A stretch of 56,071 nt of DNA, taken from assembly GCA_964437665.1 (NCBI GenBank), contig CAYTHS010000005.1:1-56071 (forward strand). Direction: 5' to 3'. The notes below the pieces were generated by a model. That model was not told where the DNA came from. It saw only the letters and a program-made list of their open reading frames with translations, and made no database searches. Of the stretch, positions 12,104-22,432 are shown piece by piece. Origin of the DNA: an uncultured Oscillospiraceae bacterium. GTDB lineage: Bacteria > Bacillota > Clostridia > Christensenellales > CAG-138. Position numbers and translations under genes: made by a program. The stretch's first letter is position 1. Every line of letters begins with the position of its first letter.

Positions 12104-14203
12104 CTATCTCACGCCGAAGAGCAGTTCGCCGTACGTCGGGTACGGCCAGTCGCTCGTAGCGATCAGGGTTTCCAGCGCGTCGGCGCTGGCACGCAGTTCG
12201 TTCATCTTCGGCAGCAGTCCGTCTTTGCAGAGTTGCGCCGCTTTTTTCGTATCTTCCTCGGCCTCGGCTTTGACTTCGGTCAGCACGTCTTCCAGCGCCT
12301 TAACGCTTTCATAAGCGGCCTTAGTCAGCGCCGCCGCCGTTTCCATCGTTTCAACTTCATATGTGCAGTCCGCCATGCTGCCGGCCGCACGTTTTGCCGC
12401 GATGGTTTCGGCGAGTTTGCGCTGGTACGAGCAGGACGCCGGCAGCATATCGCGCCGCGTCATATCCAGCATCGTCATGGCTTCGATGCAGACGATCTTC
12501 TTATAATTCTCCATCATGATTTCATAACGTGCTTTCAGCTCGCTTTCGCTGAGCACGCGGTGCGACCCGAAGAGTTCGATATTCTTCGGCGAAATCAAAT
12601 ACGGCAGGCAGTCCGGCGTGGTTTTCAGGTTGAGCAGGCCGCGTTTCTGCGCCTCTTTCACCCAGGCTTCGTCATAACCGTTGCCGTTGAAGATGATCCG
12701 CTTATGCTCGTGAATCACGCTCTCAATCAGCGCGTGCAGCGCGCTCGGCAGGTCCGTGGCGGATTCCAGCGCGTCGGCATATTTGCGCAGGGATTCCGCA
12801 ACCGCGGTATTGAGCACCATGTTCGCATCCGAAACCGACTGGCTCGAACCAAGCATGCGCAGTTCAAATTTATTGCCCGTAAACGCAAACGGCGAAGTCC
12901 GGTTGCGGTCGGTCGTATCCTTCGGGAAATGCGGGATCACATGCACGCCGATCTTCATCTGCTTCTTTTCACGCCCGCCATAGGCGGCGCCAGTGTCAAG
13001 CGCCTCCAGGATTTCAAACAGCTCGTCGCCGACAAAGATGGAAACAATCGCCGGAGGGGCCTCGTTCGCCCCGAGGCGGTGGTCATTCCCTGCGCTCGCC
13101 ACCGAAACGCGAAGCAGATCCTGATAATCGTCCACCGCCTGAATCACCGCGCAGAGGAAGAGAAGGAACTGCGCGTTCTCGAAAGGCGTTTCCCCCGGTT
13201 CAAGCAGGTTCACGCCGGCGTCCGTCGACATCGACCAGTTATTGTGCTTACCGCTGCCGTTGACGCCGGCAAACGGTTTCTCATGCAGCAGGCAGACCAG
13301 CCCGTGCTTTTTGGCGACGCGCTGCATGACCTCCATCGTCAGCTGGTTATGGTCAGCCGCAATATTTGTCGTAGTAAAAATCGGCGCGAGTTCGTGCTGT
13401 GCGGGCGCAACTTCGTTGTGCTCGGTCTTGGCAAACACGCCGAGTTCCCAAAGCTCGCTGTTGAGGTCTTCCATAAAGGCCTGCACCCGCGGCTTAATTG
13501 ACCCGAAATAATGGTCGTCAAGCTCCTGTCCCTTTGGCGCGCGCGTTCCGCAGAGCGTCCGGCCGGTATAAATCAAATCCGGGCGGCGGTCGTACAGCGC
13601 CTTGTCGATCAGGAAATATTCCTGTTCGGTCCCGACGGTAGTGACGACCTTAGTCACATCCGTGTTGCCGAAAAGCTTGAGGATACGCATCGCCTGCTTG
13701 TCGATGGCTTCCATGGACCGCAGCAGCGGAGTTTTTTTATCAAGCGCTTCACCGCCGTAGGAACAGAACGCCGTCGGGATACAGAGCACTTTTTCCTTTA
13801 TAAACGCGTGACTGGTCGGGTCCCACGCGGTATAGCCGCGCGCCTCGAACGTCGCCCGGAGCCCGCCGGAAGGGAAGCTGGACGCGTCGGGTTCCCCGCG
13901 GACAAGCTCTTTGCCGGAAAATTCCATGATAATGCCGTCGCCGGGGATGGGCGAAATGAAACTGTCGTGCTTCTCCGCTGTAATGCCGGTCAGCGGCTGG
14001 AACCAGTGCGTGAAGTGCGTTGCGCCCTTTTCGATCGCCCAGTCCTTCATCGCATTGGCCACGACGTTCGCCACGGAAAGATCCAGCCGCCGCCCCGCGC
14101 GGATTGCGGTTTGCATCGCCTCATATGTATCTTTCGGCAGCCGCGCCTTCATCACCGCATCGTTAAACACCTTGCAGCCAAAAGCTTCCGTTACCTTACC
14201 CAT
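12104..14203 (-). CDS. glnA: Glutamine synthetase type III
   Basis: [48 protein letters not shown] and [16 protein letters not shown]; start MGKV after GGAGGGAG. Confidence 0.95.
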
Positions 14204-14240: not shown

Positions 14241-14288
14241 AAAAAAAGAGGCAACGACACCACGGTCACTTCCGCGGCGCCTTTGCCG
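14241..14288 (-). promoter_or_regulatory. Leader terminator with overlapping ANTAR-type hairpin upstream of GSIII
   Basis: Minus strand CGGC-AAAGGC-GCCG (6-nt loop with A1/G4) overlaps the 5' arm of GGCAAAGGCGCCGCGG-aagtga-CCGTGGTGTCGTTGCC-TCTTTTTTT. Confidence 0.7.
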
Positions 14289-14308: not shown

Positions 14309-14337
14309 ATTATACAGCGGGGCGGAAAACTTGTCAA
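14309..14337 (-). promoter_or_regulatory. Consensus sigma-A promoter of the GSIII-asnB operon
   Basis: TTGACA-N17-TATAAT on the minus strand. Confidence 0.85.
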
Positions 14338-14463: not shown

Positions 14464-14493
14464 TTGACATTCATATTGTGAATTATGTATACT
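14464..14493 (+). promoter_or_regulatory. Sigma-A promoter of the glutamate synthase operon
   Basis: TTGACA-N18-TATACT. Confidence 0.75.
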
Positions 14494-14500
14494 GCGCAAT

Positions 14501-14589
14501 AACAACGGCGTTCATCCTGCGGGCCAATCGCCCACTGTGTGAGCGCTTTTTGCGCAAGCGCGGCCGATTGGCCCGTTGTATAATTTTTT
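14501..14589 (+). promoter_or_regulatory. ANTAR-type hairpin plus leader terminator-like stem
   Basis: AAC-AACGGC-GTT (A1/G4 loop) at 14501-14512; CGGGCCAATCG (14520-14530) pairs with CGATTGGCCCG (14565-14575), followed by a T-rich tract. Confidence 0.55.
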
Positions 14590-14669
14590 GGAGCCGCCGC
14601 GGCAGCGAAACGCACCCCGCTGCACGCATGGCAAAGCCGTTGTATAACGCGGAAGGGGAAACAAAAGAA

Positions 14670-15773
14670 ATGGCGTTGCGGGAGGGAGAAATCCGCATTC
14701 CGTCCGGCTGTGCGATCGCCGGGGTTTTCGCAAAGGATGGCTCGCTCATCCCCGGGAATCTGGTGTCGCGGGCGATGACAAGCATGCACGAGCGCTCCAA
14801 CGGCCTTGGCGGCGGGTTTGCCGGATACGGCATCTACCCGCAGAACAGGGAGTTTTACGCGCTTCATATTTTTTATAACGACACGGACGCCCGGTCCGCC
14901 TGTGAAAAGTATCTCGACCACGTGTTCGAGGTGGTCAACCTTTCGAAAATTCCGATCCGGAAAACGAAAAAAATCACGGACGAGCCGCTCATCTGGCGCT
15001 ATTTCGTCGCGCCGCACCCCAACCGCCTGCGCGACAGCCAGCTCGACGAGAAGGAGTACGTCGCGCGCGCGGTAATCCGCATCAACTCCACGTTTACCGG
15101 GTGTTTCGTCTTCTCCAGCGGCAAGAACATGGGCGTGTTCAAAGGCGTAGGCTACCCGGAAGACATCGGCAACTTCTACCGGCTTGACGAATACGAAGGC
15201 TACTGCTGGACCGCGCACGGACGTTACCCGACCAACACGCCGGGCTGGTGGGGCGGTGCGCACCCGTTTGCGCTGCTCGACTACTCGATCGTCCACAACG
15301 GCGAGATCTCCAGCTACGACGCAAACCGCCGTTTCATCGAAATGTTCGGCTACCGTTGCACGCTGCAGACGGACACCGAGGTTCTGACCTATATCGCCGA
15401 TTATCTGCTCAGAAAGGTGCGTCTGACGCTGAACGAGTTTGCAAGCGTGATCGCCGCACCGTTCTGGAGCACCATCGCAATGAAGGACGAAGCCGAGCAA
15501 AAACGCCTGACCTATCTGCGCAACGTCTTCGGCAGCCTGCTCGTCACGGGACCGTTTTCCATCCTGCTCGGGTTTGGGGGCGGCATGCTCGCGCTCAACG
15601 ACCGGCTCAAACTTCGCTCCTTGGTGGTCGGCGAACGCGGCGAAATGGTATATGTCGCCAGCGAGGAATGCGCTATACGCTATATGGAGCCCGTGCTCGA
15701 CCGTCTCTACGCACCGCGCGGCGGCGAACCCGTAATCGTTACCCTGAACGGAGGTGCCGAGCAGTGCCTGTAA
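14670..15773 (+). CDS. Class II glutamine amidotransferase subunit of a split glutamate synthase (GltB1/GlxB-like)
   Basis: PSGCAIAG, HERSNGLGGG, HGRYPTNT, AHPF, VHNGEISSY, TDTEV and DRLKLR. Confidence 0.88.
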   Translation: MALREGEIRIPSGCAIAGVFAKDGSLIPGNLVSRAMTSMHERSNGLGGGFAGYGIYPQNREFYALHIFYNDTDARSACEKYLDHVFEVVNLSKIPIRKTKKITDEPLIWRYFVAPHPNRLRDSQLDEKEYVARAVIRINSTFTGCFVFSSGKNMGVFKGVGYPEDIGNFYRLDEYEGYCWTAHGRYPTNTPGWWGGAHPFALLDYSIVHNGEISSYDANRRFIEMFGYRCTLQTDTEVLTYIADYLLRKVRLTLNEFASVIAAPFWSTIAMKDEAEQKRLTYLRNVFGSLLVTGPFSILLGFGGGMLALNDRLKLRSLVVGERGEMVYVASEECAIRYMEPVLDRLYAPRGGEPVIVTLNGGAEQCL

Positions 15774-17269
15774 TGGAAATTTACCCTGAATTTGAATTAA
15801 TCCGCGACGAAAGGCGCTGCACCAACTGCCGCATCTGCGAACGCCAGTGTGCAAACGGCGTGCATCGTTTCGACGCGCGGACGGGCCGCATGATCGCGGA
15901 CGAAACCAAATGCGTGGACTGTCAGCGCTGTGTGGCCTACTGTCCGGCGCATGCGCTCAAAATCGTGAAAAATCCCAACTCCTGCCGCGAAAACCGCAAC
16001 TGGAGCTGCGATACCATCAAGGAAATTTACCGTCAGGCGGACAGCGGCGGCGTGTTGCTCTCCTCCATGGGAAACTCCCGGGACTACCCCGTTTACTGGG
16101 ACCGTCTGCTCGTCAACGCCTCTCAGGTGACCAACCCCTCCATCGACCCGCTGCGCGAACCGATGGAAACGCGCGTTTTCCTCGGCAAAAAGCCTACGTC
16201 TATTGCACGCACGGAGGACGGCGCGCTCGTACCCGACCTGCCGCCGCAGATCAAACTTGATCTGCCGATCCTGTTTTCGGCAATGAGCTACGGCTCGGTC
16301 AGCCGCAACGTACACGAGGCGCTCGCGCGCGCGGCAACGGAACTCGGCACCTGCTACAACACAGGCGAGGGCGGGCTGCATGAGTCGCTCTACCCTTTCG
16401 TCGGCAACACGATCGTACAGGTCGCTTCCGGCCGTTTCGGCGTGCATAAGGAATATCTCAACGCCGGCGCTGCCATCGAAATCAAGATGGGCCAGGGCGC
16501 AAAACCCGGCATCGGCGGCCATCTGCCCGGCGCGAAAATCGTCGGCGACGTGTCCAAAACGCGCATGATCCCGGAAGGATCGGACGCGATCTCCCCCGCG
16601 CCGCACCACGATATTTATTCCATTGAAGACCTGCAGCAACTCGTGTATTCTTTAAAGGAAGCGAGCGGCTATCAAAAACCGATTATCGTCAAGGTCGCGG
16701 CCGTGCATAACATCGCCGCAATCGCAAGCGGCATCGCGCGCAGCGGCGCGGACATCATCGCCATCGACGGCTTCCGCGGCGGCACCGGCGCGGCGCCGAC
16801 ACGCATCCGCGACAACGTCGGCATCCCCATCGAGCTTGCACTCGCCTCGGTGGACGCGCGCCTGCGCGAGGAGGGCATCCGCAACAACGTATCCCTCGTC
16901 GTCGGCGGCAGCATCCGCTCCAGCGCGGACGCGGTCAAAGCAATCGCGCTCGGCGCAGACACGGTCTATATCGGCACCGCGGCGCTGATCGCGCTCGGCT
17001 GCCACCTCTGCCGTTCCTGCCACAAGGGCATCTGTAACTGGGGCATCGCAACCCAGCGGCCGGACCTCGTCGGCCGCCTCGACCCGGAAGAAGGCGCGAA
17101 GCGTCTCGTCAACCTCGTGACCGCCTGGAACCGCGAAATCAAGGAATTCCTCGGCGGCATGGGCATCAACTCCATCGAGGCGCTCTGCGGCAACCGCGCC
17201 ATGCTCCGTGGCGTCGGCCTCAACGAAGCGGAACTGCGTGTGCTCGGCGTCAGGCACGCAGGAGAGTAG
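15764..17269 (+). CDS. FMN-binding glutamate synthase subunit with N-terminal 2x[4Fe-4S] (GltB2/GlxD-like)
   Basis: CTNCRICERQC, CVDCQRCVAYCP, AMSYGS, NTGEGG, QVASGRFGV, EIKMGQGAKPGIGGHLPG and CHLCRSCHKGIC; GTG start after GGAGGT (alternative ATG at 15773). Confidence 0.92.
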   Translation: MPVMEIYPEFELIRDERRCTNCRICERQCANGVHRFDARTGRMIADETKCVDCQRCVAYCPAHALKIVKNPNSCRENRNWSCDTIKEIYRQADSGGVLLSSMGNSRDYPVYWDRLLVNASQVTNPSIDPLREPMETRVFLGKKPTSIARTEDGALVPDLPPQIKLDLPILFSAMSYGSVSRNVHEALARAATELGTCYNTGEGGLHESLYPFVGNTIVQVASGRFGVHKEYLNAGAAIEIKMGQGAKPGIGGHLPGAKIVGDVSKTRMIPEGSDAISPAPHHDIYSIEDLQQLVYSLKEASGYQKPIIVKVAAVHNIAAIASGIARSGADIIAIDGFRGGTGAAPTRIRDNVGIPIELALASVDARLREEGIRNNVSLVVGGSIRSSADAVKAIALGADTVYIGTAALIALGCHLCRSCHKGICNWGIATQRPDLVGRLDPEEGAKRLVNLVTAWNREIKEFLGGMGINSIEALCGNRAMLRGVGLNEAELRVLGVRHAGE

Positions 17270-17348
17270 TAAGTAGTTTTTAAACGCGCTGTTCCTTTAT
17301 ACGGCGTCTCCGGTTTCCACATGGACAAAGATTGAAAAGGTGAACGAT

Positions 17349-18089
17349 ATGGAACAAAACCAACCCCGGCAAGTACGTCGCATCGACGCGCGCGGTACGG
17401 ACTATCAGGCGCTCAACGCCTGCATCCGCCAGGCCGCTTCGGACGTGGAAATCGTCGGCGCGCTCGGCCAGCGTTACCTCGGCGACGCGCTGGACAGCGG
17501 CACGCTCACTATCCGCGGAACGGCGGGCAACGCGCTCGGCGCATACCTCAACGGCGGCAGAATCGTCGTTTACGGCAACGCGCAGGACGCTGCGGGCGAC
17601 ACCATGAACAAGGGCGAAATCATCGTCCACGGCTCGGTCGGCGACACGGTCGGCTACAGCATGCGCGGCGGCTGCATCTACGTGCGCGACAGCGCGGGTT
17701 ACCGCGCGGGGGTGCACATGAAGGCATACGGCGACACCGCGCCGGTTTTAGTCGTAGGCGGCCGGTGCGGGAGCTTCCTCGGCGAATATCAGGCCGGCGG
17801 CACCATCATAGTGCTCGGCCTCGATCAGGCGGGCGAAGTGCTCGGCTATTTCTGCGGAACGGGCATGCATGGCGGGTCGATTTACGTGCGCGGTGAAATC
17901 AAGCGCGAAAAATTCCCGCGGCAGGTGCGCGTATGCGAAGCAAACGCGGAAGACCTGGCCAAAATCGAACCGTACCTGAAACGCTACACCGCGCTTTTCC
18001 ACAGGAAAATCCCAAACGACGGCAAGCCGTTCTGGCTGCTTACACCGAATTCCAACGATCCATACCGTCAGCTTTATGTGACTAACTGA
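17349..18089 (+). CDS. GXGXG beta-helix glutamate synthase subunit (GltB3/GlxC-like)
   Basis: Repeated G..GN/D..G..M.GG.I.V.G units; GEYQAGG and GTGMHGG. Confidence 0.88.
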   Translation: MEQNQPRQVRRIDARGTDYQALNACIRQAASDVEIVGALGQRYLGDALDSGTLTIRGTAGNALGAYLNGGRIVVYGNAQDAAGDTMNKGEIIVHGSVGDTVGYSMRGGCIYVRDSAGYRAGVHMKAYGDTAPVLVVGGRCGSFLGEYQAGGTIIVLGLDQAGEVLGYFCGTGMHGGSIYVRGEIKREKFPRQVRVCEANAEDLAKIEPYLKRYTALFHRKIPNDGKPFWLLTPNSNDPYRQLYVTN

Positions 18090-18138: not shown

Positions 18139-19353
18139 ATGTATACCGCACAGGACATCATCGATTATGCCGCCGCGGAGGACGTGAAGTTTATTCGTCT
18201 CGCCTTCTGCGACGTTTTCGGCACGCAAAAAAACATCTCGATTATGCCGGAAGAACTGCCGCGTGCATTCTCCAGCGGCATATCCATCGACGCTTCGGCC
18301 ATCCGCGGGTTCGGGGACGAAGCGCACAGCGACCTTCTGCTGCATCCCGATCCGCAGACGCTCACCGCCCTGCCCTGGCGGCCCAGTCACGGCCGCGTCG
18401 TGCGGCTTTTTGCAGATATTCTGCGCTCGGACGGTACGCCGTTTCCGCTGGATGCGCGCAGCTTCCTGAAAAACACGATCGCCAAAGCCGCCGGAGAGGG
18501 CCTTGTCGTCAATTTCGGCGCCGAATTTGAATTTTATCTCTTCCGCCTCGACGAGGCAGGCAATCCGACGGACGTACCCTGCGACAACGCGCGTTATATG
18601 GACATCGCGCCGCTTGACCATGGCGAAAACGTCCGCCGTGAAATTTGCCTCACGCTCAGCGAAATGGGCGTCCATCCCGAGAGTTCGCATCACGAAAACG
18701 GGCCCGGTCAGAACGAAATCGATTTCCGCTATGGCGACGCATTGAGCGCGGCGGACAATGCGGTCACATTTGCGGCCGTCGTACGCACCGTCGCCATGCG
18801 AAACGGACTGTTCGCCGACTTTTCACCCAAACCGCTGCCGGGGGAAAGCGGCAACGGCCTGCATATCAACCTTTCGCTCGCCGCGCCGCATACGCAGGAC
18901 GCACGCGACGCGTTTATGGCGGGGCTGATGGAACATATCGCGGAAATCACGGCGTTTCTCAATCCCACGGAGGCGTCTTATGCGCGTCTCGGCGAGCACA
19001 AAGCGCCGCGGTACATCACCTGGTCGCCGGAAAACCGTTCACAGCTCATCCGCATCCCCGCGGCAAAAGGGGAATTCGAGCGCATCGAGTTGCGTTCCCC
19101 CGACCCCGCGTGCAATCCCTACCTTGCGTTCGCGCTGATTCTGCGCGCCGGCCTGGACGGCGTAAAGCGCGGGCTCGTTCCGCCGCCGCCGACCAACGTC
19201 AACCTTTTCACGGCGGACGCTTCGGTCACAATGGGACTAAAACAACTCCCCGCAACGCACGAGGCTGCGTTTGCCGCCGCGTCGGAGAGCGAATTTATCC
19301 GCGCGGTACTGCCGGAAGGGATCCTGAACGCTTACGCTTCCTGCGGCAATTGA
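18139..19353 (+). CDS. Glutamine synthetase type I-like protein, possibly catalytically degenerate
   Basis: VKFIRLAFCD..G..K, GAEFEFYLF, HHENGPGQNEI, PKP, NRSQLIRIP and RIELRSPDP..NPYL; flap motif reads EHKAP rather than GYEAP. Confidence 0.88.
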   Translation: MYTAQDIIDYAAAEDVKFIRLAFCDVFGTQKNISIMPEELPRAFSSGISIDASAIRGFGDEAHSDLLLHPDPQTLTALPWRPSHGRVVRLFADILRSDGTPFPLDARSFLKNTIAKAAGEGLVVNFGAEFEFYLFRLDEAGNPTDVPCDNARYMDIAPLDHGENVRREICLTLSEMGVHPESSHHENGPGQNEIDFRYGDALSAADNAVTFAAVVRTVAMRNGLFADFSPKPLPGESGNGLHINLSLAAPHTQDARDAFMAGLMEHIAEITAFLNPTEASYARLGEHKAPRYITWSPENRSQLIRIPAAKGEFERIELRSPDPACNPYLAFALILRAGLDGVKRGLVPPPPTNVNLFTADASVTMGLKQLPATHEAAFAAASESEFIRAVLPEGILNAYASCGN

Positions 19354-19376
19354 AATTTTAACGGGAGGCGAACTAT

Positions 19377-19973
19377 TTGGCGTCGGGCTGTGAAAAACAG
19401 AATAGCGTATTGATCGTTTCGGCAACCGAGCGGGCGCGCGCCGGCATTGCGGGCGTTCTTTCGCCGTCCCGCTATTCGCCGATCGTCATGCGCGGCTCCG
19501 CCGCCGAAACGCGCAGGCTGATGCTCGACACGCCGTTTTCACTCGTATTTATCAACACGCCGCTGCCGGACGAATTCGGCGCGCAGCTCGCGCTCGACCT
19601 CGCGTCAAGCCGGATGTGCTGCGTGGCGCTCGTCGTCTCCAGCGAAGCCTACGAGCAGGTGAGCGGCCAACTGGAAGACGCGGGCGTGATCACGCTTTCC
19701 AAACCCTGTTCGGCGCAGAACATCCGCCAGGCGGCGGCGCTCATGGCCGCCACGCGCAGCAAACTCGCCGCAATGGAGCGCAAGACCGCCACGCTGGAGG
19801 AGAAGATGGAGGAAGTGCGCCTCGTCAACCGCGCCAAATGGATGCTCATCGAGCGGCGCGGCATGGACGAAGCAACCGCGCACCGCTATATTGAAAAGCT
19901 CGCCATGGACGCGCGGCAGACGCGCAGGCTCGTGGCGCAGACGCTGATCCGTTCGCTCGAAACCAGCGACTAA
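19377..19973 (+). CDS. ANTAR-domain antiterminator with pseudo-receiver domain (NitR/AmiR-like)
   Basis: C-terminal VNRAKWMLIERRGMDEATAHRYIEKLAMD; receiver-like N-terminus (VLIVS, LVFINTPLPD, LSKP); TTG start after GGGAGG. Confidence 0.9.
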   Translation: MASGCEKQNSVLIVSATERARAGIAGVLSPSRYSPIVMRGSAAETRRLMLDTPFSLVFINTPLPDEFGAQLALDLASSRMCCVALVVSSEAYEQVSGQLEDAGVITLSKPCSAQNIRQAAALMAATRSKLAAMERKTATLEEKMEEVRLVNRAKWMLIERRGMDEATAHRYIEKLAMDARQTRRLVAQTLIRSLETSD

Positions 19974-20168
19974 ACGTTTCTTTCAGCGGCTCTGCCCGTG
20001 AGGACACTTCGCTTTTATGACAGAGTAAAAAAGCATTTTCCGGCAGCAAAAAACAGGCTTGTTTCGGGCGGGGGTGTGTCCCGTCCGTTTTTCTTGTGTT
20101 ATACTTTTATTAACTTATGACAACAGCATATCGGACTTATCAGAAACGACATCGTTCGGAGGGTTAAA

Positions 20169-21533
20169 ATGGAGCAATATGATGTTTTGATCGTCGGCGC
20201 GGCAACCGCCGGCAGCTTTTTTGCGCGCAGGATCGCCGAAGCGGGACACAGCGTACTTGTGCTCGACAAGCTCGGCAAAGATTCCCTCGGACACCGGCTG
20301 GACATCTTCCATGTCGGCAAGCCCGACTTTGAACGATTCGGCCTCCCTTTACCGGAGGAAAACGATGATTTCGCGTTTGAATTCACCGGCGGGCGCACCT
20401 TTTCCGCCTACGGGCGCTACCCTAAGAAAACCACCGGCACGACCGTCGGCATGCACATGCCGCGCTACATCGCCCGCCTGAACCGCTGGGCGGAGGAAGC
20501 GGGCGCAACGTTCCTGCTCGGCGCGGCGTTCACCGGTTTTCTCTGGGAAAACGGCCGCGTCGCAGGCGCAACTTACGAAAAAGACGGCGTTTCGCATGAA
20601 GTACGCGCAAAGCTCGTTGCCGATTGCTCGGGCATCCCATCCGTGGCCCGGCGGCAGCTGCCGGACGGCTACGGCGTGGAAAACTTCGCCATCGCGGACA
20701 CGGACAAGTTTTACGTGACATTGCGCTATGTTACCTATCACGACCCGAACGATTATGTAAGCGGCACGCGCGGCTGGACCTACTACAAAACCTGGGAAGC
20801 ACCGGAGGGCAGCCCGGACTGCGCGATACTCGGCGTCGGCGCGAACTTTTCCTACGACGAGGGCGAAAAGGTCTTCGCCGCGTTTGAAAAAGCGGTCGAA
20901 TTGCCGCGCTATACCCTCAAGCGTATTGAACGCGGCACGACCCCTTACCGCCGCCCGCCGTACAGCTTCGTCGCGGACGGGTTCCTTGCTTCCGGCGACG
21001 CAGCCTGCCTGACCAAACCGTCCGCGGGCGAAGGCGTGACCGCAAGCATGGTTCAGCTCGAAATCGCGGCGGACGTGGTCAGCCGCCTGCTCGATGAAGG
21101 CGAATCCCTCACCCGCGCACGTCTCTGGCCGATCAACAAGCGATATGTCGACGCGCAGGGCAAGGCGTTTGCAGGACAGCTTGCAACGCTGATCGGCGCA
21201 ATGTCCACCAGCGCGGAGGAAAACGACTTCTTCTTTGAAAAGGACGTAATCTTCAGCGACAAAACGTTCGCCAGCCTCGGCAGCGGCGAGCCGCTCGCTT
21301 TTTCCACCGGGGAAATGCTGAACATGGCGTTTAAAATGCTCGGCGGCGTGCTCTCCGGCAGGCTCCGCGTTTCCACGATCCGTTCGCTGCTTTCCGGCAT
21401 GAAAAACGGCGGCCGCGCCGAGGCGCTCTATGCCGAATACCCGGAAACCGAAGCGGGTTATGCGGCCTGGACGAAACGCGCGGACGAATTCTGGCGCAGC
21501 TGCGGCAGTATGGCGGACAACGCGGTGGGATGA
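20169..21533 (+). CDS. FAD-dependent oxidoreductase, geranylgeranyl-reductase-like
   Basis: YDVLIVGAATAG..A, AKLVADCSG and GDAACLTKP.AGEGV. Confidence 0.8.
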   Translation: MEQYDVLIVGAATAGSFFARRIAEAGHSVLVLDKLGKDSLGHRLDIFHVGKPDFERFGLPLPEENDDFAFEFTGGRTFSAYGRYPKKTTGTTVGMHMPRYIARLNRWAEEAGATFLLGAAFTGFLWENGRVAGATYEKDGVSHEVRAKLVADCSGIPSVARRQLPDGYGVENFAIADTDKFYVTLRYVTYHDPNDYVSGTRGWTYYKTWEAPEGSPDCAILGVGANFSYDEGEKVFAAFEKAVELPRYTLKRIERGTTPYRRPPYSFVADGFLASGDAACLTKPSAGEGVTASMVQLEIAADVVSRLLDEGESLTRARLWPINKRYVDAQGKAFAGQLATLIGAMSTSAEENDFFFEKDVIFSDKTFASLGSGEPLAFSTGEMLNMAFKMLGGVLSGRLRVSTIRSLLSGMKNGGRAEALYAEYPETEAGYAAWTKRADEFWRSCGSMADNAVG

Positions 21534-21769: not shown

Positions 21770-22432
21770 ATGATAATAACGAATCTCAATAAAGTACCGT
21801 TCAAATACATCGTTTTATACGGCTTATATCTTCTTGTTCCAATCGTATGTTTTTTCATTTTCGCCTCCGTGTTTCTATCCGGCGGCGCGCATGGACGGCC
21901 ATACGCCTTTGCGGTGGATAACGAACAGCGCCTTTATCTAAGCTTCGGCAGTGGTCTGGTTGCCGTGGAAGACGGCCAGTTTCGGTTCCTCACGCCGTCA
22001 GACAGATCCGATTTTGCGCTTTCCGTGTCCGAAGAAGCTATCCTTACAATAGCGGGTCCCGTGGACGTGCGGTTGGTCGACCTGAACCAAAGCGATATTG
22101 CATCCGGCAGCCAGCAGGTTATCGAACGTTACTCCGATCCGGACAACGCCCTGTTCGGCAACCGCGAAGAAAACTGGAGGACCGACGTGCAAAACGGCGT
22201 TACTTATCGCTATGAAGGCACTTCCTTCTATTACGAGATTCTCCGGGACGACGGCGCCGAAACGAGCGTGTTTTTCGCCATGCCGCATTCAGACTATGTG
22301 TGGCACATCGTTGCGGTTTCAGCCTTCGCGTTCTTTTTCATTTATGTCGGTGCGGGGGTATTGTTTATAAAGCTATTCGTCATAAAACGGCATCCGGAGT
22401 TTTATCGGCACGTAAAGTATCCCTGGCAATAG
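21770..22432 (+). CDS. Hypothetical membrane protein (two TM helices flanking a soluble domain)
   Basis: 220 aa ORF with hydrophobic segments near both termini. Confidence 0.7.
   Translation: MIITNLNKVPFKYIVLYGLYLLVPIVCFFIFASVFLSGGAHGRPYAFAVDNEQRLYLSFGSGLVAVEDGQFRFLTPSDRSDFALSVSEEAILTIAGPVDVRLVDLNQSDIASGSQQVIERYSDPDNALFGNREENWRTDVQNGVTYRYEGTSFYYEILRDDGAETSVFFAMPHSDYVWHIVAVSAFAFFFIYVGAGVLFIKLFVIKRHPEFYRHVKYPWQ

Follow-up and report, generated by a model that had tools for sequence, protein, structure and literature searches.

Investigating a stretch of 56,071 nucleotides from an uncultured Oscillospiraceae bacterium (assembly GCA_964437665.1, contig CAYTHS010000005.1; the whole stretch is called the window in the following), we found a compact nitrogen-assimilation cluster, in which a gene encoding a relative of type I glutamine synthetase (GS), here termed the GS-like protein, is directly followed by a gene encoding an ANTAR-domain protein (Table 1). 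This pair probably is the switch of the bacterium's nitrogen-assimilation genes. Its two genes stand at the end of an operon beginning with the three subunits of a split glutamate synthase (GOGAT), and a type III GS (GSIII) gene is located on the other strand; two near-consensus promoter-like sites (14337-14309 and 14464-14493) point away from each other. The GSIII gene likely starts at M55 of the listed open reading frame (ORF), which as listed extends to 14365. An initial annotation, made from the sequence alone, had spoken of an intact GSIII encoded divergently: the gene is indeed intact and on the minus strand, but it is divergent from the operon's first gene and not from the GS-like gene. 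The genome, rated 92% complete, carries a single ANTAR gene and two GS-family genes (the GS-like one and GSIII). The only P-II domain found in it is fused to the ammonium transporter Amt, and no free P-II gene was found in this genome.

Table 1. Features of the nitrogen-assimilation cluster (positions refer to the window)
Feature	Position	Strand	Basis or remark
Type III glutamine synthetase (GSIII) gene	12104..14203	minus	Pfam GSIII_N, Gln-synt_C, Gln-synt_C-ter; flap GANEAPP in translation
GSIII leader attenuator	14241..14288	minus	hairpin scan, fold, covariation
GSIII promoter-like site (TTGACA, 17 nt, TATAAT)	14309..14337	minus	12/12 matches
Operon promoter-like site (TTGACA, 18 nt, TATACT)	14464..14493	plus	11/12 matches; serves the GOGAT / GS-like / ANTAR operon
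Operon leader attenuator	14501..14553	plus	hairpin scan, fold
Class-II glutamine amidotransferase subunit of split archaeal-type glutamate synthase	14671..15773	plus	Pfam GATase_2
4Fe-4S plus FMN glutamate-synthase subunit	15776..17269	plus	Pfam Glu_synthase (E 5e-138), Fer4 families
GXGXG subunit of split glutamate synthase	17340..18089	plus	Pfam GXGXG
GS-like protein, 404 aa, flap-Lys, C-terminally short GSI-alpha family	18139..19353	plus	Pfam, alignment
Pseudo-receiver plus ANTAR antiterminator, 198 aa, Asn60 at phospho-acceptor position	19377..19973	plus	Pfam, alignment
Terminator-like hairpin closing the operon	20065..20087	plus	

The GS-like protein matches the Pfam families Gln-synt_N (E 1e-21) and Gln-synt_C (E 3e-87), and the NCBIfam equivalog model for GlnA (TIGR00653) scores it with 329.9 bits, below the cut-off of 429.15. 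Its best solved relatives are GS chains of Methanosarcina mazei (E ~1e-108), and the alignment to these bears out the residue map of the initial annotation. The metal and ATP motifs GAEFE, HHE..PGQNE, GLH and RIELR are all kept in the translation. The flap, GYEAP in M. mazei GS, reads EHKAP, Lys288 facing the flap Glu, and codon arithmetic puts this Lys at 19000-19002; likewise, DASA faces DGSS and GFGDEAHSD faces GFTRIEESD, while a gap of 12 residues follows GNGLH. Of the 446 residues of the M. mazei chain, the alignment covers none beyond 420, and about 25 C-terminal residues are missing from the GS-like protein, in agreement with the claim that at 404 aa it ends without the inter-ring helix; in M. 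mazei GS, the C-terminal helices are described as tying the two hexamer rings together. The exchanged residues thus comprise Lys for the flap Glu and Ala for Ser53' (numbering of enterobacterial GS), and the Arg that forms part of the glutamine lock (Gln-lock Arg) is lost.

The ANTAR gene starts with TTG, 23 nt past the stop codon of the GS-like gene as initially annotated, and GGGAGG, a good ribosome-binding site, is found 7 nt upstream of this start. Its product matches the ANTAR domain (PF03861) with an E of 9e-16, the Pfam family Response_reg reaches 18.7 bits and thereby stays below its cut-off of 30.2, and the closest solved relatives are Rv1626, EutV and AmiR. The receiver-like part had been noticed to lack the acidic pocket (VLIVSA) and to carry Asn at the phospho-Asp site (LVFIN), both of which can be read in the translation (N60, codon 19554-19556). 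Among 77 partner proteins from related loci, this site is occupied by Asn in 71, by Asp in four and by Ser in one, with a gap in the remaining one; the acidic-pocket positions mostly are Ala, Ser or Gly, the Lys-Pro of strand 5 (Lys109-Pro110) is retained and Asp65 is invariant in an alignment of 22 sequences. Judged from these residues, the receiver-like domain is predicted not to be phosphorylatable at the usual site.

The flap-Lys family and other ANTAR-linked GS genes

A pattern scan of species-representative genomes gave at least 562 related loci, the best 80 of which were taken as the sample of the family (short GS-like proteins with Lys in the flap, the flap-Lys family); they stem from records titled Christensenellaceae, Oscillospiraceae, Ruminococcus, Lachnospiraceae and other Clostridia. 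A representative protein library, which contains many fragmentary or odd sequences, was used descriptively only. All 120 best homologues listed are 396-412 aa long. Lys288 and Asp51 are each present in 80 of the 80 loci, Ala54, at the position of Ser53', in 76, and the metal ligands and catalytic Arg residues (E129, E131, E186, E193, H242, E317, R300, R305 and R319) each in all 80. The position of the Gln-lock Arg, on the other hand, is taken by D, G, S, T, E or A, never by Arg. The C-terminal end falls within 9 residues of position 400 in 76/80 loci, two of the four outliers being artefacts of ORF calling. Glu286 was considered as a substitute of the flap Glu and ruled out, as Glu occurs at this position in only 27/80 loci and no conserved acidic residue is nearby. 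Another GS gene exists in each of the ten genomes with a flap-Lys gene that were checked (this genome included).

The ANTAR ORF lies directly downstream of the GS-like gene in all 76 testable loci; in the remaining four, the contig ends within 223 nt. Upstream of the pair, counted in 45 loci with at least 7.4 kb of upstream sequence, a divergent GSIII was found in 36 and a split GOGAT directly upstream in 22, with both in 17 and neither in four. The co-occurrence of short flap-Lys GSI homologues with adjacent ANTAR genes and GSIII, suggested earlier as a check, therefore is what the sampled genomes display (76/76 and 36/45). With Lys in 80/80 related loci and the ANTAR gene downstream in 76/76 testable ones, the flap-Lys and the shortened C-terminus are family traits rather than chance or gene decay, and the GS-like gene and the kinase-less ANTAR gene form a conserved pair, which is obligate from the GS-like side. 

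Some further sequences should be mentioned. At L065:3489-3656, only an ANTAR-domain ORF of about 57 aa follows the flap-Lys gene, the receiver-like part being gone. A search for longer homologues, looking for fused GS-ANTAR proteins, gave one unrelated protein of 1027 aa only, and two apparent in-frame GS-ANTAR fusions (L057 and L069) were rejected, since a stop codon separates the genes. Two giant proteins of the library, P0121 (4424 aa) and P0122 (2757 aa), contain 12 and 6 GS-like stretches, respectively, with about 32-33% identity to the GS-like query.

ANTAR-linked GS genes are not restricted to this family. Of 401 genomes sampled from the phylum, 176 contain a match to a profile built from the ANTAR partners; 20 matches in 19 genomes reached at least 157 bits, and the rest scored lower, at about 70-110 bits among the 150 matches listed. 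Around the weaker matches (60 loci), 51 of 67 ANTAR ORFs have a GS gene on the same strand within 350 bp, in either order. Canonical-looking neighbours, with DGSS, the lock Arg and a GYEAP or GFEAP flap, make up 33 of these 51, and the other 18 are of full length with other flaps (GDLSP, SELVP, GHLTP, SDNGAP, GNSELD and others). A receiver site other than Asp occurs in 13/18 variant-flap pairs versus 6/33 canonical pairs, a comparison which is descriptive because the surveyed genomes are related. In several pairs combining Asn with GDLSP, stop and start codons overlap. Five loci from other Bacillota (L086, L089, L104, L110 and L121) encode full-length GS paralogues with a GDLSP or PDLSP flap, DSSV for DGSS and no Gln-lock Arg; each of their genes shows a stop/start overlap with the ANTAR gene preceding it, and the receivers encoded there have Asn at the acceptor site. 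The five seem to be an independent, second line of GS partners with an altered flap. In a midpoint-rooted FastTree phylogeny, each of the three groups (flap-Lys, variant-flap and canonical) appears as a clade of its own.

RNA attenuators and the regulon

The intergenic regions between the divergent genes of the related loci carry a recurrent RNA element. A hairpin closed by a C-G pair, with AAnGnn (most commonly AAAGGC) as its hexaloop, is present together with a terminator in 35 of 37 divergent intergenic regions, in 21 of them on both strands; hexaloop and 3' arm can pair with a segment further downstream, behind which a U-run stands. In 30 such units, changes on both sides were found in 5/7 hairpin pairs and 9/14 terminator pairs. 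Pairing amounts to 100% of cells in the hairpin and 88% in the terminator versus 41-61% in slid controls, percentages that partly arise by construction, since the scan chose its units by required pairing; the covariation outside the nine scanned positions is independent of that choice. The loop variants AAGGAT, AATGAT and AACGGC are matched in the terminator arm.

In the GSIII leader, the 5' arm of the terminator (14287..14250, again followed by a U-run) shares nucleotides with the hexaloop hairpin CGGC-AAAGGC-GCCG (14288..14275). The terminator folds with -26.4 kcal/mol (z -4.3), and the unit scores 33.9 bits with a covariance model of such units (R1), of which it is itself a training member. 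The operon leader has a weak hexaloop hairpin, AAC-AACGGC-GUU (14501-14512), at the transcript 5' end, the loop and 3' arm of which are the 5' arm of a terminator (14507-14548) preceding UUUUU. The terminator folds with -21.5 kcal/mol and the hexaloop hairpin alone is not stable, which fits a structure needing a protein to hold it. Neither the strict pattern scan nor R1 picked up this plus-strand leader; its layout matches the leaders of the closest relatives (L001-L005). A third unit was found about 30 nt upstream of the Amt-PII fusion gene (574 aa; contig C80:20-1819, locus L144, minus strand), which also has a promoter-like site.

A genome-wide pattern scan for such units gave 49 matches, mostly noise. 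R1 gave seven matches at E up to 1, of which the GSIII leader and the amt leader were accepted; one on contig C45 (22.5 bits) was dropped as an attenuator, lacking a U-run as well as any ORF within 400 nt. No Rfam family reached its gathering score in the window, and the permissive matches in the leaders were to spurious eukaryotic families. Since all three leaders carry a hexaloop hairpin competing with a terminator, we state with high confidence that the ANTAR protein runs three attenuators, those of GSIII, of the split GOGAT operon (itself included) and of amt. The antiterminator initially proposed is well in accordance with attenuators in front of GSIII, of the pair's own operon and of amt.

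Further structures were observed next to these units. After its first terminator (window 14521-14590), the operon leader contains a long hairpin with perfect pairing, GGGCCAATCG ... CGATTGGCCC, and behind it a U-run; an 11-nt direct repeat, CCGTTGTATAA, is located at 14573-14583 and 14637-14647; the second copy follows a hexaloop-like hairpin, ATGGC-AAAGCC-GTTGT, near the ribosome-binding site (window 14628-14650). The two segments (14521-14590 and 14628-14650) may be a second, degenerate control unit. Directly upstream of the promoter and attenuator of amt, a 565-aa ORF gives a weak HATPase_c match (35.9 bits; contig C80:2065-2334, minus strand). Downstream of the ANTAR gene, the window encodes an FAD oxidoreductase of the geranylgeranyl-reductase family (20169-21533), which keeps this position in three close relatives (L001-L003) and might serve the split GOGAT as a partner in electron transfer. 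It also contains a 220-aa membrane-protein-like ORF (21770-22432) without a Pfam family, four tandem paralogues of which are found at L001:13352-16108.

A proposed nitrogen-status switch and its alternatives

The anatomy of the two proteins, their conserved pairing and the RNA switch with its covariation are directly supported by the data. We consider it slightly better than an even bet (a probability of roughly 0.55) that the two proteins and the RNA element constitute a nitrogen-status switch, with the GS-like protein as the signal-sensing partner of the ANTAR protein. The latter, probably as a dimer, would bind the hexaloop hairpin (closing C-G pair, AAnGnn) in nascent leaders; the bound loop and 3' arm would be unable to become the 5' arm of the intrinsic terminator, and transcription would read through into GSIII, the split GOGAT / GS-like / ANTAR operon and the Amt-PII transporter gene. 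We infer that the activity of the ANTAR protein is set by the GS-like protein, a GSI-alpha derivative which keeps the nucleotide, metal, glutamate and 2-oxoglutarate (2-OG) sites and no longer has the flap Glu, Ser53', the Gln-lock Arg or the C-terminal inter-ring helices. At nitrogen excess, the GS-like protein would keep the ANTAR protein inactive; upon nitrogen limitation, 2-OG, possibly with ATP, glutamate or glutamine, would change its conformation or oligomeric state and the antiterminator would be released. Physical binding, the ligand, this direction of control and the loss of catalysis are what we infer here. The regulatory role itself is suggested by a synteny tighter than shared regulation needs, by the precedents of AmiC-AmiR and NasS-NasT and by the phenotype of a glnA deletion in Clostridium thermocellum (see below). 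A complex prediction with two GS-like chains and residues 1-135 of the ANTAR protein, an alignment being supplied for each, scored 0.00 in both runs, which were made without controls and speak neither for nor against contact of the two proteins.

As for the signal, a Gln/Glu sensor gating the antiterminator had initially been proposed. The conserved pairing, the GSIII linkage and the attenuators favour such a gate, but glutamine acting through the known lock has become less attractive. In Bacillus subtilis GS, the flap Glu and Arg62 are described as the residues on which feedback by glutamine depends, and glutamine is reported not to inhibit an archaeal GS that has Gly in place of this Arg; since both the flap Glu and the Gln-lock Arg are replaced in the flap-Lys family, sensing of glutamine by this lock seems unlikely. 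With the lock residues gone and the archaeal 2-OG pocket intact, 2-OG would be at least as likely a signal as glutamine. In M. mazei GlnA1, this pocket is described at the subunit interface (F24, R26, S38, R87, R172, R173 and S189), where 2-OG serves as glue between the ring subunits, and five equivalent residues are named for the GS of M. thermolithotrophicus. By alignment, the GS-like protein has F18, R20, N32, R81, R166, R167 and S183 at these positions, a motif kept in 80/80 loci, and Ser34 (also 80/80) at a position where a bulky residue would block 2-OG. It therefore appears plausible that a 2-OG-dependent change in the assembly of the GS-like protein holds or releases the ANTAR protein.

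Several observations weigh against this switch as proposed. Every catalytic metal, ATP and glutamate residue of the GS-like protein is intact, and it could thus still be an enzyme. Four genomes (G018, G276, G220 and G379; L152-L155) have an Asn-site ANTAR gene divergent from GSIII with no adjacent GS-like gene; they belong to 18 genomes with a close ANTAR homologue, nine of which have a flap-Lys-type neighbour. G018, listed as 100% complete, has only two GSIII-type matches and no GSI-type gene. Such cases imply that the antiterminator can take other input or sense directly. The 2-OG pocket is also kept in ANTAR-linked GS with a canonical flap (36/42) and with a variant flap (16/16), and was therefore rejected as a mark of the flap-Lys family; it is a trait inherited within this GS lineage. 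The C. thermocellum glnA lies outside the flap-Lys family, and its deletion phenotype could be polar on the downstream ANTAR gene. Finally, no second conserved hexaloop hairpin beside the first (a dual motif) was found in the leaders scanned.

Among the alternatives, the one surviving best, though in itself unlikely, is that the GS-like protein, compact as it is, works as a glutamine synthetase and is merely a target of the ANTAR protein, which would sense otherwise, be it by a ligand of its own pseudo-receiver, by contact with GSIII or by contact with the Amt-fused P-II. The metal, ATP and glutamate residues together with Asp51, all kept in 80/80 loci, agree with a working enzyme, and so do the four of 18 genomes with an Asn-site ANTAR but no GS-like neighbour (one without any GSI-type gene) and the 33 ANTAR ORFs across the phylum lying within 350 bp of an ordinary-looking GS gene. 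Such an enzyme would, however, have to cope with Lys in place of the flap Glu in every locus without an acidic substitute (E286 in 27/80), with Ala for Ser53' in 76/80 and with the absence of the ring-joining C-terminal helices, in genomes possessing another GS gene in 10/10 cases checked, and a pairing of 76/76 is tighter than co-regulation alone needs.

It is considerably less probable that the GS-like protein acts as a gamma-glutamyl ligase on a non-ammonium, perhaps acidic, amine, accommodated by an ammonium pocket altered by the exchanges of Glu to Lys and of Ser to Ala. The ammonium-site residues are indeed changed while those for glutamate, ATP and metal are kept, and GS relatives of this kind do occur among the solved structures (a glutamate-methylamine ligase, besides a chain deposited as type III glutamate-ammonia ligase, both matching far more weakly than true GS). 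In the same direction, NCBIfam gives matches to gamma-glutamylputrescine synthetase, weak and below cut-off. The closest relatives, however, are true GSI-alpha enzymes and not polyamine or methylamine ligases, the gene context is solely ammonium assimilation, and the obligate ANTAR neighbour would be left unexplained.

Least probable of all is an ordinary response regulator, phosphorylated by an unlinked kinase or a small phospho-donor on a non-canonical residue, next to an unrelated GS-like gene: the genome has 28 HATPase_c matches and Lys109-Pro110 as well as the invariant Asp65 are kept, but the acceptor site is Asn in 71/77 proteins, the acidic pocket is absent, Response_reg stays below its cut-off and all 28 matches are on other contigs, none being found on the window's contig, in line with the annotated lack of a histidine kinase.

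Returning to the nitrogen-status switch, a further-reaching version of it is tentative, and we would put it somewhat below even odds: a GS would have retired from catalysis, with a Lys in its ammonium site, and, still possessing its pockets for 2-OG, nucleotide and glutamate, turned into a dedicated metabolite sensor that holds or releases an RNA antiterminator. With the same reserve, this would be a third kind of pair of a sensor and a pseudo-receiver ANTAR protein, and the first with a sensor derived from the enzyme it regulates. The short flap-Lys clade and the separate full-length clade with flaps like GDLSP both pair mostly with non-Asp receivers, and there are hints that Bacillota took the step from GS to sensor twice or more; in ancestral glnA-nitR pairs, the sensor would have been the active enzyme.

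Nitrogen-status sensing in Clostridia is poorly understood, and a 2018 review calls the nitrogen-sensing mechanism of Clostridium saccharobutylicum 'not fully understood'; in the genome studied here, there is no free P-II gene and the sole ANTAR regulator is without a phospho-acceptor site. If true, the proposed switch would explain how GSIII, GOGAT and ammonium uptake are switched in many gut, rumen and digester Clostridia. It would also provide a mechanistic reading of the C. thermocellum glnA deletion, which is reported to deregulate nitrogen metabolism and to give a higher ethanol yield, and would be a clear case of an enzyme turned regulator at the RNA level. With at least 562 loci, the family is large enough for co-evolution analysis and biochemistry.

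Comparison with known systems

The RNA switch, the control of nitrogen genes by ANTAR proteins and the glnA-nitR gene pair are already known. ANTAR proteins recognise hexaloops whose first base is A and whose fourth is G, a rule that has been described together with predicted targets upstream of glutamate/glutamine synthase genes and ammonium transporters (Ramesh et al. 2012). In the literature searched, which included a 2025 review on GS and did not extend to subscription journals, we found no short flap-Lys GS treated as a distinct, obligately ANTAR-paired family and no GS derivative proposed as an ANTAR sensor.

The closest genetic parallels come from two Clostridium species. In C. saccharobutylicum, antitermination by NitR is reviewed as inducing the GS/GOGAT genes on nitrogen limitation, and the C. 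thermocellum cluster Clo1313_2030-2038 is described as containing GOGAT genes, glnA, an ANTAR gene and a nearby GSIII as well as an AmtB-PII fusion. Both have, as does our locus, a GSI-alpha gene followed by a receiver-ANTAR gene, with GOGAT genes linked. The glnA of C. thermocellum, however, is of full length (1323 nt) and is named type I glutamate-ammonia ligase in RefSeq, unlike the 404-aa GS-like protein with its flap-Lys and sub-threshold GlnA score; on the grounds of gene length and RefSeq name, it was rejected as a member of the flap-Lys family. By its title, the study of Rydzak et al. (2017) found that deletion of this gene 'deregulates nitrogen metabolism', and papers citing it mention raised urease expression.

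Leaders controlled by EutV/EutW likewise carry an A1/G4 hexaloop overlapping a terminator, but EutV is a kinase-phosphorylated protein that binds a pair of hairpins, whereas the leaders studied here have one hexaloop hairpin per terminator, often at the transcript 5' end. The kinase-driven type, represented by EutV/EutW and PdtaR/PdtaS, is characterised by a phospho-acceptor Asp, an acidic pocket and a linked kinase, none of which was found at the locus. On the side of the enzymes, the closest solved relatives, M. mazei GlnA1 and the GS of M. thermolithotrophicus, have their 2-OG residues in common with the GS-like protein by alignment, yet they are active enzymes that form dodecamers by means of the C-terminal helices, which the flap-Lys family lacks together with the flap Glu. 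The GS of B. subtilis, also a GSI-alpha, is described in review passages as handing on the nitrogen status to TnrA and GlnR by protein contact; it is an active enzyme with a glutamine lock (flap Glu, Arg62) and DNA-binding targets, whereas in the GS-like protein both lock residues are replaced and the candidate target binds RNA.

Nearest in logic are AmiC-AmiR of Pseudomonas aeruginosa and NasS-NasT of Paracoccus denitrificans, the latter reported to be a complex which dissociates on nitrate or nitrite and thereby frees NasT. In both, and by our proposal at this locus too, a receiver-like ANTAR protein is not phosphorylated, and the signal arrives via a separately encoded ligand-binding partner. 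These partners bind an amide or nitrate/nitrite, whereas the candidate partner at the locus derives from an enzyme, glutamine synthetase, and its binding is putative. On balance, we lean towards assigning the system to this partner-controlled type of pseudo-receiver ANTAR proteins, with a partner that has been recruited from glutamine synthetase.

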